Below, in pieces: positions 12,702-61,925 of a stretch of DNA of 64,000 bases (position 1 is the first letter of the stretch; every line of letters begins with the position of its first letter). Source of the DNA: Squalus acanthias (Eukaryota); contig CM059445.1 in the NCBI GenBank assembly GCA_030390025.1, positions 41,230,001 to 41,294,000 of the forward strand, read 5' to 3'. Under the pieces are notes generated by a model. It saw only the letters and a list, made by a program, of their open reading frames with translations. It searched no databases and had not been told where the DNA came from. The position numbers and the translations under genes are program-made.

Positions 12702-14404
12702 GCTGGCACAGACATGATGGGCCGAATGACCTCCTTCTGTGCGGCAAGATTCTATGAATTGTTCAGTGTAAATAAAGCAGAAAGGGAGAGAATATAAGAG
12801 ACATCTGAGCAATTGAATAAGTATGGACATATTGTGAAGTTGATATTTCCCCTCAAATCAGGAACAACCGGCTTAGTTTTAGAACTGCTAGCACTTCACC
12901 ACTGAGAGTGTGATGTACACTGGAGAATTGGCGATTCATTTTTTGCCATGGGTTAATTATTGTGCAATCTGTGGTTAGCTTTTCTGATAAAGATTAGTAA
13001 TGTTATCAAAGTTGTAAAAGAAACAGACTGTAAACTCTTATTCAAAGCACCTTCATAAGACAAAGGCCGAAGCTTGTAGGTTCCTTTGTCTGAAGATACC
13101 TCCATACCACATGGGTGGCTGCCCTTTTACAGCTAATGGATCAAGTCTGAAAAATCAATATCACCAGTCTCTTGCTGTTTGATGGAACCATTGAAATGCT
13201 AACTTATTAAATTCAAACAAACAGATGAAAGTTGTCACTTTTTACCTCTGCATTCCAGAGAAAAAAGCATTTATTGTAGCCAGCAGACTTATGATCAGTG
13301 CTTCGGATGGGGGTGGAGGGAAATCAAGGAGCAAAGAAGGATCTGTGGATCAGCTATACTTGGGCTACCGCATACAAATGGCCTCTTGGATAGATTCCAA
13401 GAACTGACAGTCTTTGAAAAGTCACTGTGGAATAACCAGCACAGAAAAGTAGATAGCAAATAATTAGAGAGTAAAGTATGGCCAATGATAGGATTTAAGG
13501 TCACTGGGGATCTAGTGATTCTTGAAGAACTCCTTTGCTAGCTTTAATCAACTAAAAGAAGTTTCAATTACCTAGATTCCAATATCTACAGATCATGGGA
13601 TAATTAGGCAAACTCTGATGGAGCGAGGGAATCAGAGTCCAAAAGTCACAAATTAAGTGAGTTACATATAAAGCAGACCAAGGAGAGAGACCTGTGACTG
13701 CACTTTATATATTTTGAGGAAAAGAGAAAAAAATGTAAATATTAATAAGAAGGCATTGGGAAAATGAGCTGGATAAAGTAACCAGGGAGGAAGTTTAGAG
13801 AACGCTATTAGGCGTGAGCAACCAATAGTCGCACAAATGCAAGATTAAAATGAACACACTGAAAGAGGGTCCATTAGACATGCACAACCCTGGATAAAAT
13901 GTAATGTGGATCAAATGAAAGAGGCTAAACTGCTGGAGCTGGGAATAATTGGAGAGTGTTCCCTCTTAAAAAAACTGCCAGATGCCCCCCTGCAATCCCC
14001 TCCCACAGCATATTTTTACAGTAAGGCATCACATATGAAACTAATTCAAAGATATAAACTGTTCCATTGGGCTCAAAGACTTTATAAAGTGGACACTATC
14101 AATGTTGATGTGAGCCCTTGGTATCATATTACATAGAATTACATAGTATTTACAGCACAGAAACAGGCCATTTGCCAGTGTTTATGCTCCACATGAGCCT
14201 CCTCCCACCCTACTTCTTCTAACCCTATCAGCAGATCCTTATATTCATTAAGTACTTACTAGCTTCCCCTTAAATGCATCTATGCTATTCACCTCAGCTA
14301 CTCTATGTGGTAACGAGTTCCACATTCTCACCACTCTCTGGGTAAAGAAGTTTCTCCTGAATTCCCTACTGGATTTATTAGCGACTATCTTATATTTTTG
14401 ACCT

Positions 14405-14538
14405 AACAACAGAAAGTGCTGGAAACACTCAGCAGGTCAGGCAGCATCGAAGAGAGGAAAAACAGAGTCAACGTTTCGGGTTGAACCCTTCGTCAGAACT
14501 GTTATTTCAGATTTCCAGCATCTGCAGTATTTTGCTAT
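14405..14538 (-). mobile_element. Penelope-like pseudo-LTR end with a short inverted tail
   Basis: Homologous to the PLE 3' region at 32300-32405, followed by the oppositely oriented tail ttatttcagatttccagcatctgcagtattttgct. Confidence 0.7.
14466..14500 (-). ncRNA. Minimal type-I hammerhead ribozyme motif (PLE-associated)
   Basis: RNA AGUU-CUGACGA-A-GGGUU C AACCC-GAAAC-GUU-GACU shows both core boxes, stem II, and stem I AGUU/GACU. Confidence 0.65.
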
Positions 14539-17815: not shown

Positions 17816-18982
17816 GGGGGGGGAATTTTAACTCCAAAAAATGGGCGGGTTTGGGGCGTTGGGAGGTTAAAGTGCTAAAAATCTGAATTCCAACCCCAAC
17901 CCCCCTCCAACCCGCCCACTTCCAGTTTTAACGGAGGCGAGATGGCGGCGGGTAGACAACACTCCCAGGAGTTGGGTTGTCAATTTAAATATTATAATGA
18001 GGCTGCGTGCCTCATGTCGATCCGCAATTTCAGATTTAACTCTGGCCGGCCTGGTTTTCTGGGCCTCGGAAAACCCATGGTTAAAGGGAGGCAAGGACTG
18101 CTGGATCCAGGAGGTAAGTGCCTTTCCACTTACTTGTTGGATCCAGCGTACCTGCGTCGCTAGCCCCTCCACAATTAGATTCCCCACCCCCGACCCTTCC
18201 AATCAACCTCCGACCTGCCTCGCGAGGGCTTCAACCTCCCCCCACAAGGCACTGATTTCACACCCCGCCTCTGGCCTCCAATCTCACCCCCGAAGCCTCC
18301 GTTCTCACCCCCGAGGCCTCCGATCTCACCCCCGAGGCCTCCATTCTCACCCCCAAGGCCTCTGATCTCACCGCCCCCCCACCCCCCCAGCCTCCGATCT
18401 CATCCCCCCGGCCTCCGATCTCACCCCCGAGGCCTCCATTCTCACCCCCGAGGCCTCTGATCTCACCCCCCCCCCCCCCCGGCCTCCAATCTCATCCCTG
18501 AGGCCTCCGATCTCACCCCCGAGGCCTCTAATCTCACACCACCCCCCCGGCCTCTGATCACACCTCCGAGGCCTCTGATCTCAGTCCGAGGCCTCCGATC
18601 TCACCCCCCCTCTGGCCTCCGATCTCACAGGCCTCCGATCTCCCAACCCCCATCCCTAGCCTCCAATCTCCCAGCCTCTGATTCCTAAGGCCCCCCCATC
18701 TCCGATCTCTGAATCCCCCCAACCTCCGACCCCCCCCCCCACCCCCCACTCCTCTCTGCTCCCCAGCTGTGGCCTGGTGCTGAAGGCCTACCCGCCCGAC
18801 AGCTAGTCAGCCTTTCAATTTGGCTGCCTGCGGCTGTGAAATGGAGAAAAAATAGTTCAATCAGGTCCTGCCATTAAGTTTGGCAGGGAAACCCATTCTC
18901 CTGGGTTTCTCGGCCTCAATTCAGCTCCCCCACCCCCCCACCCCCGGAGCTCCCTCTCCGCCTCTGAGTAAAAATCCAGCCC
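17816..18982. mobile_element. Harbinger-type MITE with an internal minisatellite, inserted in CR1
   Basis: Ends gggggggaattttaactc / gagtaaaaatccagccc; TSD TTT (17813-17815, 18983-18985); CR1 sequence is contiguous across it. Confidence 0.8.
18270..18750. repeat. C-rich minisatellite, about 21-bp unit (ctccgatctcacccccgaggc)
   Basis: About 20 degenerate tandem units; G-rich on the minus strand. Confidence 0.9.
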
Positions 18983-26158: not shown

Positions 26159-27005
26159 GGGCTGGATTTTGTGAATGGAGGCGAGTTGGATGCGGGACAG
26201 CTGCTTGTCGTATCAATGTCCCGCCTCCATCCTCGCCTGACCAACCAGAGGGATTTTCCCCTGATTGACCTTGTTAAGCCCGCCCTGCGGGCTCAGCAGA
26301 CCAATTAGGGAGGAAGTCACTGAAAGAGCACGTCAATGTCTGACGTGCTATCTGTCAAGACTTCTTGAAAGAAGAAATGTCAGCGTTTCACAGCTCTGTG
26401 AAGCTGTCAAACACTGACATTCTTTTTAGTTTGATGAGACCTTCTGTTCAGGACTCATCAAACCTTTCAAATTTGTAAATTTCACATGGCTGTTGGTTTG
26501 GAGGTTCCAACAGCCAGTCTGTGAAATTGACAAGGAGGATGTCAGGTCTCCCGATCCAGCGCGGCTGAAGGCTGTAGGAAGAAAACAAGGTAAGTGAATA
26601 TTTTTAAACACTTATCACTCACCTTACATACTTACCACTCCACACTTGCACCCATCACTCACCTCTACATCTTACTTCCAGGTGCCTTCGACCGCTGCAG
26701 ACCTCCTTCACGTCTCCTCCAACCCGGCGGGGTTCTCCGAGGTCGGGAAGCCTTCACCTGTGAAGGTAAAATGGCACTAATCCTTTTTTTTTGCCTGTTA
26801 ACTATCTGTTAACAGGCACTAAAAAGGATTAAATGCCTTTCCTGCCTCCAGGAGACGGGACCCGAAGCAGCACATCTTCCCGCCTCCTGGCAAAAGGGCA
26901 CGGAGGCGGGATGGGGGCGGGTTTGCCATCCGCCTCCACTTTCTCCTAATTTACCGGCTGTCCCGCCTCCATGCCCGCCTCCTCGGGGCTTGGAAAATTC
27001 AGCCC
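26159..27005. mobile_element. Harbinger-type MITE, family H3
   Basis: TIRs gggctggatttt / aaaattcagccc; reverse-complement homolog of 61019-61849; TSD not evident. Confidence 0.75.
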
Positions 27006-31889: not shown

Positions 31890-32125
31890 TAGGATCCCCT
31901 AAGGACCCCTTTTTGTCTATCCTATCACAGGCCTTCCTCTTTGTTCTTTCCTCTCCCCACCCCCCACCTTTTCCCTGGCTCTGTATTTGTTTAAACACTG
32001 TTAATCTCTAAATTTTCCAGTTCTGACGAAGGGTCTTCGACCTGAAATGTTAACTCTGTTTCTCTCTCCGCAGATGCTGTCTGACCAGCTGATTGTTTTC
32101 CAGTATTTTCTGTTTTTATTCCAGA
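31890..32125 (+). mobile_element. Penelope-like 3' end / pseudo-LTR
   Basis: Reverse-complement homolog of 32300-32480; contains the hammerhead motif. Confidence 0.7.
32019..32055 (+). ncRNA. Minimal hammerhead ribozyme motif (one CpG-type change in stem III)
   Basis: AGUU-CUGACGA-A-GGGUC UUC GACCU-GAAAU-GUU-AACU. Confidence 0.6.
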
Positions 32126-32299: not shown

Positions 32300-32935
32300 A
32301 ATGAACAACAGTAGAAAACGCTGGAAAAACTCAGCAGGCGAGGCAGCATCCGTGGAGAGAGAAACAGAGTTAACGTTTCAGGTCGAAGACCTTTCGTCAG
32401 AACTGGAAACAGCAGGAAATCAAATAGATTTAAGGCAAGGATAAAGCTGGGAAAAGGGGGAGGGGATGAAAGAACAAAAAGAGAGATTAAGAGACATTAA
32501 GAGACATTAAGAGATATTCAAGGCAAGAGGTGATGTTAATGTGACAGGTTAAGGCTGAAAGAAGTGTGAAATGCACTGGCAGAATGAAGGACAGCTGCCA
32601 GCTTCTAGGAGGGAAAAAAAAGGGGGGGGGGGGGTGCAAATAAAAGGGTGGATGAAAAAATAAAATATAAATGTGATTGGGGCTAAGGTTATGATCTAAA
32701 ATTGTTGAACTCGATATTGAGTCCAGAGGGCTGTAGCGTGCCTAAACGAAAGATGAGGTGCTGTTCCTCGAGCTTACACTGCGCTTCCGTGGAACAGCGT
32801 AATAGGCCGAGGATGGTGAGGTCAGAGTGGGAGTGAAGCGGTGAATTAAAGTGACAGGCGACCGGGAGCTCGGGGTCCCCCTTACGGACTGAACAGAGGT
32901 GTTCCGCAAGGTGTTCCGCAAAGCGGTCACCCAAT
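32300..32935 (-). mobile_element. Penelope-like element 3' part (GIY-YIG endonuclease C-terminus plus 3' region)
   Basis: ORF 32689-32934 GDRFAEHL...PVACHFNS..HSHSDL...KLEEQHLIFRLGTLQPSGLN, the PLE GIY-YIG signature. Confidence 0.85.
32368..32404 (-). ncRNA. Minimal type-I hammerhead ribozyme motif, intact
   Basis: AGUU-CUGACGA-A-AGGUC UUC GACCU-GAAAC-GUU-AACU: perfect stem II, stem I AGUU/AACU, loopless palindromic stem III. Confidence 0.7.
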
Positions 32936-48147: not shown

Positions 48148-48994
48148 ATAAAAACTGAAAACGCAGAAAACACTCAATAGGTCAGGCAGCATCTGTGGAG
48201 AAAGAATCAGAGTTAACGGCCCAGAAATTGATCTCGCTCTGTTCCCGCGGGGGTAAGCCTTCCCCGCGATGTCTCACCTCGCTTATGCTTTTTCAGATCC
48301 AGCTCGCACGAACTTGATGTTCCAGACATCAGCTGTGCTGGGCTTGCGTATCCCAGCGGCGTAGTGAATTCGTGCGAGCTGTGGGATCACGTGACTCAGT
48401 TAGAGCCAATGGCAGCACACCATCTTCCATTCATAAGTCTCACAGCATGGCTGTGAAATCTATGAATCTTACACCCCCCCAAAATAACAGCTAAACCTCA
48501 ATTAAATTTAAAAAAAAACCCATCACATTAATAAAATAAGTATAGTTAATTAAATTAACCATTTTAAATAAAAAATTAAATTTTTGAAAAAATTTAAAAT
48601 CTTTTAAAAAGTTATAAAAATAAACTTACCTGTCTTTAAAGTCTATAAAAAAGATATACCTGTAAAAAAAAATTCAAAAAAATACTTAATTCACTACTTA
48701 CCTTCTTAAAAGCGGGTCTTACTCCTCCTTTTTACATTTCCAAAATCTTCCCTACTTACCTGCGCGTCCAAAGCATGAAGTGCACAGCGTGCGCGCAGCC
48801 TGTAGCGCGCACGCGATGCACCCAGGCCCCGCCCCCTTTTCAGAAGAGCAATTGCCGGTTTTCAGCGCATGCGCAGGGCATGCAGAAAACCGGCAATTGG
48901 AGTGGGAATACGCGAGAGTACACAGTGCGTACTCTCGCGTCCCGGGATCAATTTTCGGCCCATTGTTTGAGGTCAATGACCTTTCATCTGAACT
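48148..48994 (-). mobile_element. Penelope pseudo-LTR end split by a MITE
   Basis: ggtcaggcagcatctgtggagaaagaatcagagttaac [MITE] attgtttgaggtcaatgacctttcatctgaact. Confidence 0.7.
48218..48961. mobile_element. Harbinger MITE, family H1
   Basis: TIRs ggcccagaaattgatc / gatcaattttcggccc; flanks AAC / ATT (decayed TSD); colinear with 851-1604. Confidence 0.82.
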
Positions 48995-49087
48995 CCGGTT
49001 CCAATAACTGCTGATAACTGCAAACTTGCCCTCTTTTTTAGTGATCTGTGAGAACCACCAGTGTATAAGACTGGTCGGAGAAACCAT

Positions 49088-49839
49088 GGCCCAGATATTC
49101 CCATCGCAGGCCTCCCACGGGCGGAGGACTGCGATCTGGAAAAATCTGCACCCTTATCTGAGGGCTCCCGGGGACGCGCACAATTCCAGTGCTGGGCCTC
49201 TCCAAACTGCAAGTGCGCAGGGCCCACGTATCCCAGAGGCACAGGTAGTTCGCAGCATCCCTGGGATCACGTGGGCCATGGGGAGCCAATCACAGAAGGG
49301 AATCTCCCTTCATACACTTGACAGGAAGACCTGTCTAATATATGAATGGAGATCACCCCCAAAACATAGTAAAACTTTAAATACATTTTAAAAAAACATC
49401 ACATTTTTAAAATGACTTGAAATTACAATAAATTAACTATTTTAAACAAAAATTTAAATTTTTGAAAAAAATAATTAAAGTTTTTTTACGGGGCTAAAAA
49501 TAAACTTACATTTTTTAAAAGTATTTTTAAATGATAAATCAGTGAAAAAACATTTTTTTTCAACTTTTTTTTCAACTCTTATCCTGGTAAAAGCAGGCCT
49601 TAACCAGACGTAAGAATTGTACGGGTTTTCTGCGGGCGGAGGGTCTCCAAAAAGCGGAACTATCCGCCCGCAGAGGCCCTTCTCCAGGGCAGCCGGAGGG
49701 TCTGTCAAGACCATTCTTGACAGATCGGAAATGCCAGTTTTCAGCGCATGCGCTGTGCATGCCTGAAACCGGCATTTCCGATGTCCCTACGGGTGGGTAC
49801 ACAGCGCGTACACACCCGTAGGGATCGGAATTTCCGGCC
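49088..49839. mobile_element. Harbinger MITE, family H1 variant
   Basis: Ends ggcccagatattcccatc / gatcggaatttccggcc; shares ctgggatcacgtgggccatg...gccaat and the AT-rich core with the other H1 copies; TSD unclear. Confidence 0.78.
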
Positions 49840-59576: not shown

Positions 59577-60313
59577 GGGCTGGATTTTCATTGACCCGTG
59601 GAGGCGGGTTTGGAGGCGTGTGGGAGGTTAAAATTGCGAAAACTGGCGGGCGGGCACAAGTCCGCCTCCATGCAATTTTAATTAAATCGTGTCTGCTGGT
59701 CCCGACTCTATTCCGCCTCTAAGAGGCGGGATAGGCTGTTAAGGCCCTTAACAAGCACTAAATTGCCTCTATAATGCCATTTTGAAAGGCTTTTGTGATT
59801 TTAACCCTTGTTCTACGTGAAGCACGCCTGTTCTTGACCACAAATGTGAAACCTGGCGGGAGCACATCTATCTGGCTGGCTCGCTGGCTGGCTGGCTCTC
59901 TCTCTGGCTCGCTGGCTCTCTCTCTGGCTCTGGCTCTGGCTGGCTATGGGGCTGCATATATGGATGGCTATGTGGATGGATGTATATATGGATGGAGAGG
60001 AGACATATCTGGGAGTGGTGGTGTAAAAATATCTGGGAGCAGACTTAGGACTGCTGCTACTCATTTTGCAGGTCCTCTCACAGCAAAGGCCAGGCAGTCT
60101 TTGCAGACCTTCAATGCAACAGCAATGATGACATCATCAAAGGCGACTTTCAGACTGAAAACACTAATTGGTTCATGGGTTCCCACATGCTGGAACTCAA
60201 TTGCCCAATTAGGTGAAAATCGCTTCAATCTCCCACATCCAATTACAGTCGGGTGGATAACACGGAAAGTGGATGACATGACCCCAACCCTCCCCAGTAT
60301 TAAAATCCAGCCC
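59577..60313. mobile_element. Harbinger-type MITE with internal microsatellites
   Basis: TIRs gggctggattt / aaatccagccc; TSD ATT (59574-59576, 60314-60316); (tggc)/(tggctc)/(tgga) runs at about 59870-59995. Confidence 0.82.
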
Positions 60314-60949: not shown

Positions 60950-61925
60950 TAAAAAAAGATAATGCTGGAAACACTTGGCAGGCCAGGCAACATCTGCATT
61001 GAGAGAAACAGAGTTAACGGGTGCGATTTTGCCAGCCCCGGGGAGGTGGGTATGGAGGCGGGACTGCTGGAAAAATGGCAGAAACTGGGGGTGGGTGGCA
61101 ACCAGGTGCCATCTTGCCAGGAGAGGGGTTGCTGTCCTGCGCCGGGTCCCGTCTCCTTGGAGGCGGGAAGGGATTAAAGCCTATTAACTGCCTGTTAACA
61201 GGTAGTTAACAGGCAGAAAATAGGATTATCCCTTTTTTTGCCCTCACAAGTGCGGGCTTCCCAAAGGCTCCAAAACCCGTCAGGGTCACCGAGGCGAATA
61301 CTGGGTCTGCGGGGGTCGGAGGGGGTGCAAAAGTGTGGTGTGAAGGTAAGTGATGGGTGCAAGAGTGTAGAGGTGAGTATCTGAGGTAAGTTCTGAGTGT
61401 TTTTAAAAGTGTACTTACCTTTGTTTCTTCCTGCAGGCTTCAGTCGGTTTCTATACGGAGAGTCTCGCACCTCCGTGTTGCAGATGAGAGATGTCCGTTG
61501 CATTCTCAGATGCAATAAACATCTCAATTCTGTAAAAGAAAGAAGGTTGATGAGGTCTTGTATGCAAGACCTCATCAAACTGCAGAGATTGTCACTGTTT
61601 TGACAGCTTCACAGAGCTGTCAAACGATGACAATTCATCTGTCAAATTTTTTTGACAGATGACACGACATACATTGACGTGCTCTGCAACCGGCTTTCCC
61701 TTAATTGGCCTGCTAGGCCCGCTGGGCGGCTTAACAAGGTCAATCAAGGGAAAATAGCGTGGGTTGGCTACAACTCGATGGAGGTGGGATTGAAACCCGA
61801 GAAGCAGCAGTCCCGCCTCCAACGCGCCTCCATTCACAAAATCGTCCCCAACGTCTCAGGTCGATGACCTTACATCAGAACTCATTTCAGATTTCCAACA
61901 TCCGCAGTATTTTGCTTTTGTTTTA
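60950..61925 (-). mobile_element. Penelope pseudo-LTR end with an inverted tail, split by a MITE
   Basis: gagagaaacagagttaac [MITE] aacgtctcaggtcgatgaccttacatcagaact, then catttcagatttccaacatccgcagtattttgc; same layout as 14405-14538. Confidence 0.72.
61019..61849. mobile_element. Harbinger MITE, family H3
   Basis: TIRs gggtgcgattttg / caaaatcgtcccc; perfect TSD AAC (61016-61018, 61850-61852). Confidence 0.85.

Follow-up and report, generated by a model that had tools for sequence, protein, structure and literature searches.

The window, a stretch of 64,000 nucleotides of Squalus acanthias DNA, contains five copies of the end of one repeat, located at 14403-14520, 32019-32120, 32313-32404, 48149-48995 and 60950-61900, and two of the five are interrupted at the identical base. 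The three empty copies were delimited by blastn: that at 32313-32404 (minus strand, target triplet at 32372-32374) serves as the reference, that at 32019-32120 lies in the opposite orientation (plus strand) and that at 14403-14520 (minus strand) is more divergent. Together they give the pre-insertion state as AGTT-AAC-GTTTC.

The interrupted copy at 60950-61900 begins with a Penelope-like 3' tail (60950-61015, minus strand), which on the element strand lies 3' of the hammerhead motif and shows 79-81% identity (blastn) to the three empty copies. It is followed by the target triplet AAC (61016-61018, plus strand; GUU on the element strand), an H3-type non-autonomous Harbinger of 831 bp (61019-61849) with 13-bp terminal inverted repeats (TIRs) at 61019-61031 and 61837-61849, and a second AAC (61850-61852, plus strand) which completes a perfect duplication. 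The arms of this element, GGGTGCGATTTTG and the reverse of CAAAATCGTCCCC, are matched at 12 of 13 positions. The repeat resumes with a predicted minimal-hammerhead core and stem II (61853-61882, minus strand), the anatomy being assigned according to the description in PMC4209133, and two core bases are unlike those of the empty copies. The other interrupted copy comprises a Penelope-like element 3' tail (48149-48214, minus strand; blastn to the other copies), the original target triplet AAC (48215-48217, plus strand), an H1-type non-autonomous Harbinger of 744 bp (48218-48961) with 16-bp arms at 48218-48233 and 48946-48961, a right triplet which reads ATT in place of AAC (48962-48964, plus strand), and a predicted core with stem II (48965-48995, minus strand) again carrying two core bases unlike the empty copies. 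Triplets, TIRs and arms were all read directly from the DNA.

A sequence-only reading of the window had described two unrelated Harbinger MITEs at the same nucleotide of the Penelope hammerhead, hitting two of its five copies and duplicating the putative GUU cleavage triplet. This description was confirmed at the coordinates given above. Both inserts are preceded by CAGAGTTAAC and followed by the rest of the same repeat, and the duplicated triplet is the predicted GUU directly after GAAAC on the element strand. H1 and H3 have only the end pattern GG-N4-RAWWTT in common; no internal similarity between them was detected by blastn. The H3 element has a relative in the window at 26165-26998 (72% identity, blastn), and among the sampled relatives of the H1 copy the nearest has 98.4% identity to it. 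The reading had also taken AAC at 61850 as a perfect duplicate and ATT at 48962 as a decayed one; the bases are as described, but decay agrees poorly with so well preserved a copy and with the genome-wide pattern of ATN triplets considered below.

Further MITEs with the same end classes are found in the window at 851-1604, 26165-26998, 49090-49839 and 59577-60313, and an H1-related element starts about 130 bases past the H1 copy. A tandem array of a 21-bp C-rich unit occupies positions 18243-18587.

The host repeat and the inserted elements

On its own strand the host repeat reads AGUU, CUGANGA, A, stem II, GAAAC, GUU and AACU, with GUU at the predicted cleavage position. The layout of minimal type I hammerheads in Penelope-like elements has been described (Cervera and De la Pena 2014; PMC4209133), and the repeat shares with it the CUGANGA box, the extra base, GAAAC and the GIY-YIG link, together with a predicted long stem II, a putative palindromic ACGU replacing helix III and a predicted short stem I. 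It differs from that description in the first stem II pair (G10.1-C11.1), which is A-U or G-U in the main subfamily here (two of the three empty copies) and G-C in the copy at 14473 alone. The minimal-hammerhead description in PMC4209133 makes no mention of sharks. The core boxes CUGANGA and GAAA with NUH are present in the empty copies at 32375-32400 and 14473-14496, and are altered in both interrupted copies. On RNA folding, stem II forms in all three copies, and the minimum-energy fold is not a hammerhead and is no better than those of shuffled sequences; an Rfam search of the window returned no hammerhead match.

For 15 of 31 endonuclease-motif hits the hammerhead motif follows on the same strand, mostly 430-550 nt downstream. 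Each of the three proteins tested has a GIY-YIG match (E 1e-4 to 2e-3, one above the cut-off), and RVT_1 is weak in the L243 protein (E 1e-3, below the cut-off). The copies in the window are tail fragments. We conclude that the host repeat is probably the tail of a Penelope-like element carrying a predicted hammerhead. Such minimal motifs are described in PMC4209133 as cleaving weakly, as dimers. Inactivation of the ribozyme by insertion, which had been suggested, would be marginal and concerns 2-4% of mostly short, non-coding copies of a predicted ribozyme; since both interrupted copies in the window carry two core substitutions, inactivation cannot be judged from them. Empty hammerhead copies often occur as tail-to-tail inverted pairs, 35-65 bases apart (G000:C1 2732857/2732923, 4009524/4009580 and 6300103/6300147). 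These match the opposite-strand pairs described for Penelope hammerheads, and the window copies at 32019-32120 and 32313-32404 are likewise opposite.

Six reading frames from long elements found at the same site elsewhere in the genome were searched. DDE_Tnp_4 fragments that pass the Pfam cut-off (E 1e-12 to 4e-9) were present in three, Myb_DNA-bind_5 in two (L066 and L075) and nothing in one; neither Myb match was seen in an element with a transposase match. The H1 and H3 MITEs of the window are non-coding, and their link to Harbinger runs through repeat class alone, H3 sharing its class with the elements that retain DDE_Tnp_4 or Myb_DNA-bind_5 remnants. The TIRs are short and begin with G. 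Comparison of empty with filled sites revealed a 3-bp target duplication, AAC/AAC or AAT/AAT in 47 of 71 two-sided insertions, plus one TAC/TAC, and an extended palindromic target preference, with information at -9 to -4, was obtained from 167 termini. The elements at the site are Harbingers with 3-bp duplications.

Insertion at the hammerhead triplet across the genome

The 3.71-Gb genome, with repeats of shark-like appearance, was searched with exact-match patterns, all counts from which are lower bounds. Two such patterns matched at least 43,403 and at least 55,076 empty sites, and by a normalised estimate there are approximately 91,000 copies. With AAC fixed, at least 1,132 left junctions were found; with the GG-N4-RAWWTT inverted repeat joined to a free triplet, there were at least 2,346 left and at least 2,040 right junctions, and reversed-pattern controls gave 0-1. 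Approximately 2-4% of copies carry an insertion. When a gap of 0-30 bases was permitted after an upstream anchor (a 31-bp stretch), 1,696 insertion matches were obtained. Among the first 100 of these, all on contig 1, 87 are at the target triplet, one is rearranged and 12 lie elsewhere, including four at gap 11, three at gap 13, one at TAA and none at TTA. The positions were tallied by eye, small indels in the AG run being tolerated. For 87 of 100 at one position the binomial p is about 1e-114. The sequence-only reading had held that insertions evenly spread along the repeat end would speak against a hotspot; what was found is a sharp peak at the triplet.

One hundred left junctions were read in their loci. 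A right half is in register in 71 (reduced from 72 when L282 was removed as a spurious right junction), and 28 are without a right half in the DNA examined; 40 of 70 further loci were read at length. The inserts range from 646 to 6,189 bp and there are 51 distinct first 12-mers per 100 left ends, a variety of ends and lengths which indicates independent insertion events. The 28 one-sided junctions might instead be taken to mean that a few events were amplified by retrotransposition or duplication, or that Penelope inserted beside MITE ends. This we regard as exceedingly improbable, given the 71 insertions with both halves in register, their many types and lengths in both orientations, and the recovery of most missing right halves in longer sequence. 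At one locus (L034, G000:C1:82296995-82297842) the element lies between inverted copies of the same Penelope tail half and a short spacer of AACGTTTCC is present, so that the insertion site carries a local inversion-duplication.

To define the target preference, termini were catalogued from a 1.06-Mb sample. The initial 368 were reduced to 186 by removal of shifted registers and internal repeats, and then to 167 by removal of 11 false-looking termini and the eight from the hotspot, so that the consensus was built without the hotspot. The half-site is A(-9) R(-8) A(-7) N W(-5) Y(-4) beside an AT-rich triplet, and a target consensus from insertion flanks, the second check which had been proposed, thus yielded a 15-bp palindrome centred on the triplet, in full A-R-A-N-W-Y-[NNN]-R-W-N-T-Y-T. 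The hammerhead site matches nine of the 10 key positions: GAAAC supplies one half-site and stem I plus the tail (AACTCT) the second, with GUU between them. It is the top-scoring position of the 130-nt tail, and by its flanks it belongs to the top 0.3% of sampled positions.

For two comparator sites, junctions were counted across the genome and related to copy numbers from the sample. A SINE site with seven of 10 matches had three junctions (control 1) per ~59,000 copies (predicted 0.05%, seen 0.005%), a CR1 site with eight matches had 78 per ~56,000 (predicted 0.18%, seen 0.14%), and the hammerhead site with its nine matches had 2,040-2,346 per ~91,000 (predicted 0.8%, seen 2.2-2.6%). The proposal that the predicted GUU is a recurrent Harbinger landing site is therefore borne out, its use being 16-18 times that of the CR1 comparator and more than 400 times that of the SINE comparator. 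The predictions come from a match-count curve drawn from 39 elements (seven with nine matches; a rough density), which remained of 48 paired elements after six doubtful and three hotspot pairs had been removed. This model orders the three sites correctly and leaves a roughly threefold excess at the hammerhead. An additive weight matrix predicts ~27-fold enrichment, with neighbouring triplets 3-4 times weaker, against an actual ~200-fold over the average and 20-30 times the neighbours. As a ranking tool the matrix was rejected, its scores for the hammerhead site and for the SINE and CR1 comparators being equally high; the high-scoring comparator sites from block D were also discarded, as they proved to be one local tandem array. 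At L211-L230 (G000:C5:30000001-30200000), ~10-13 near-identical long units form a local tandem array, and one MITE copy from it is in the terminus set.

Variants with AAT, as produced by CpG decay, are favoured, being found in 34 of 100 junctions on each side vs. 9 of 100 empty sites, and the target pairs are concordant (33 AAC/AAC, 14 AAT/AAT and six mixed). The overlapping hexamers GTTAAC and AACGTT, to which the hotspot had been attributed, do not explain it. The triplets TTA and TAA at the centre of GTTAAC took only the single insertion mentioned above, copies in which GTTAAC is broken (GTCAAC, GATAAT, GGTAAC) are still used, and the consensus is centred on the triplet with the hexamers off-centre.

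The hotspot is likely to exist because the site matches nine of the 10 key positions of the palindromic preference. This suggests a chance match multiplied by copy number, without recognition at the RNA level, with some finer preference remaining. Special targeting beyond the sequence match, either as adaptation to an abundant harmless repeat or through a cruciform or chromatin feature, would account for use some tenfold above the additive matrix and threefold above the match-count model, and for the hammerhead being the most recurrent site in the 1.06-Mb sample. Of the ~100 sampled elements, however, only four are at the hammerhead, and two of these four come from the window; the consensus owes nothing to this site, and the same rule holds for the CR1 comparator. 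Two insertions were likewise found in the CR1 tail repeat, and one family at the CR1 site is absent among the 100 listed hammerhead junctions. We consider special targeting unlikely. The two CR1 insertions, in blocks A and C, are at TAT of the tail repeat (TATGATTC units), a second recurrent target.

Mismatched target triplets

Not all of the insertions are flanked by equal triplets. Among right junctions, 155 of 2,040 have ATN beside the inverted repeat, and among left junctions 66 of 2,346, vs. 110 of 55,076 empty sites (p < 1e-44); ATN is 2.7 times as frequent on the right as on the left. By eye, the first 100 right junctions listed comprise 63 ATT, 18 ATA, 12 ATG and seven ATC, and all 66 on the left comprise 46 ATT, eight ATA, seven ATC and five ATG; the first 100 empty sites listed comprise 80 ATC, 19 ATT and one ATG. 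As a control, a neutral G seven bases into the flank was changed in 97 junctions (control 16), 17 of them to T, vs. 2,040. The junctions with ATT are associated with H1-type ends (~43 of 63 right and ~33 of 46 left), which make up 22 of 100 junctions overall, and ATT or AAT is the flanking triplet of 27 of 36 H1-type termini elsewhere. Of 43 left-ATN junctions, not one is paired with ATN on the right (baseline pairing 35/100), which argues that the targets were not pre-existing ATT. Discordance beyond CpG decay was found in 17 of 71 two-sided insertions, in 16 of the 17 on one side only.

Ordinary point mutation, or variant targets already present before insertion, would in principle explain such mismatches. 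CpG decay is indeed consistent with the AAC/AAT differences (on the free right side AACA is just as common), and on the left, where 47 loci were compared, the transversion excess in the triplet was not significant (8/141 vs. 13/376, p 0.32). On the right, transversions in the triplet of the locus set are in excess (12/195 vs. 11/650, p 0.002). The 14- and 38-fold ATN excess over empty sites, the inverted ratio of ATT to ATC, the double changes (ATA and ATG in 30 of 100), the dependence on family and the lack of matching pairs among the 43 all speak against this explanation, as do the young H1-type copies, three of six of which are discordant at >= 97% identity. We judge it highly improbable. 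At 48962, decay to ATT would mean two changes within a copy at 98.4% identity with its relative; taken with the ATN excess, the predominance of ATT over ATC, the H1-type link and the one-sidedness, this indicates that the triplet is likely donor-derived.

Away from the hotspot, unequal triplets flank 15 of 28 elements of the H1 and H3 types vs. one of 11 in a third family with GGGGGAAAAATT ends. Its copies and those of the H1 type have comparable ages (median best identity 96.8% vs. 95.6%), and the H3 type is older (86.8%). The 3-bp duplications of the third family are nearly always perfect (10/11); it contributes most insertions at the CR1 comparator site and is absent among the 100 listed hammerhead junctions. 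It may process its ends differently.

Overwriting after insertion must also be weighed, whether by gene conversion between copies, with a tract running a few bases past the TIR, or by error-prone filling of the 3-nt gap. Gene conversion, the main rival to donor carry-over, would likewise give family-typical, one-sided triplets, and a change at +3 is common to two of six right-ATT copies examined over their full length. Apart from this, however, positions +2 to +5 of the flank show no less conservation than distant ones (changed in 2, 3, 0 and 1 of 65), and the third family is unaffected, while error-prone filling would not remember the family. Overwriting thus appears quite improbable. In-place inversion, or copying from the other end of the element, was also tried as an explanation and rejected, as it predicts GTT, which is seen in none of the 200 listed junctions.

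Proposed integration with donor overhangs, and related systems

We think it probable that Harbinger families insert at the hammerhead triplet through a match to their target preference and that one duplicated triplet is often replaced by bases from a donor overhang. Against this reading stand the 2.7-fold excess of ATN on the right, the non-significant transversion result on the left, the +3 change common to two right-ATT copies, and the third family, which has 3-bp duplications and almost no discordance. In this mechanism, Harbingers with 3-bp duplications and the palindromic preference given above would find GAAAC as one half-site, stem I with AACTCT as the other and GUU at the centre, presumably by coincidence multiplied by copy number and without RNA-level recognition. 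Excision would cut the old duplication in a staggered fashion, leaving a 3-nt overhang on each transposon end, as may be expected from work on mPing. At integration this overhang would sometimes be ligated into the 3-nt gap and not trimmed. The ligated junction would be a heteroduplex of donor strand against target strand, and replication, giving daughters with one side replaced, or repair would leave the donor triplet fixed at one end of the element and that of the target at the opposite end. The expected outcome would be one-sided, family-typical replacement, as found in about a quarter of insertions at the hammerhead site. The heteroduplex model predicts changes that are one-sided, limited to the triplet and typical of the family, as seen. 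At G000:C1:160144678, L162 and L166 the repeat is preceded by an additional triplet (AAC followed by AAT) or by a single additional base, which would be expected if an overhang had been joined untrimmed.

More broadly, it seems fairly likely that vertebrate Harbingers routinely integrate in the manner of piggyBac, filling the target gap with the 3-nt overhang from the last site, some families doing so and others not. Each move could thereby leave a three-base record of the donor in the new site, and with thousands of insertions into one known target the hammerhead would be a natural reporter of this that allows donors to be traced. It was already known that target preference can be extended, that Penelope tails bear ribozyme motifs and that overhangs are carried in engineered systems. 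Among the open-access main texts searched, none was found to describe mismatched duplications where Harbingers have inserted naturally, or a Harbinger hotspot in Penelope hammerheads. For piggyBac, mutations are reportedly found at noncanonical integration sites, to judge by the title of a paper.

The zebrafish elements Harbinger3_DR and Harbinger3N_DR are described as having a transposase together with a Myb-like protein, a 3-bp duplication and an extended target preference, put at 15 bp for vertebrates (PMC2836001). The consensus obtained here is likewise of 6+3+6 bp, and its triplet is AT-rich, AWT being commonest, which would set it apart from Harbinger3_DR. In rice, mPing, Ping and Pong are PIF/Harbinger elements. 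PMC4561436 proposes that Tourist-like elements are excised through staggered cleavage within the duplications, which leaves 3-nt 5' overhangs, and reports that non-matching duplications lower mPing excision. According to PMC11254759, mPing takes its donor TTA/TAA along into Cas9 cuts, and free transposition leaves an intact duplication. The triplet is carried there into engineered blunt breaks, as described in that report, whereas here it is seen in natural insertions at a known AAC target; the donor and target triplets of mPing are nearly always TTA/TAA, which would mask carry-over. The piggyBac ends also keep a TTAA overhang from the old duplication, with seamless excision (PMC7351741), though piggyBac belongs to another superfamily and has a 4-bp, near-invariant target.

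The hotspot is a large, clean case of the conserved ribozyme core of one mobile element serving as a landing pad for another, and it follows a known Harbinger preference. End processing at integration has been little studied in PIF/Harbinger elements, and donor triplets fixed at natural sites provide a direct, testable model. Filters for perfect duplications would overlook between a quarter and a half of these elements, and mismatches between duplications are unusable for dating them. From the effect described in PMC4561436, excision of such copies would leave point changes or be hindered. Genome tools based on Harbinger may alter junction bases. Block E (L240 region) has a head-to-tail pair of H1-type MITEs, at block positions 97852 and 98549, with one ATT triplet in common, and element ends may themselves be targets.
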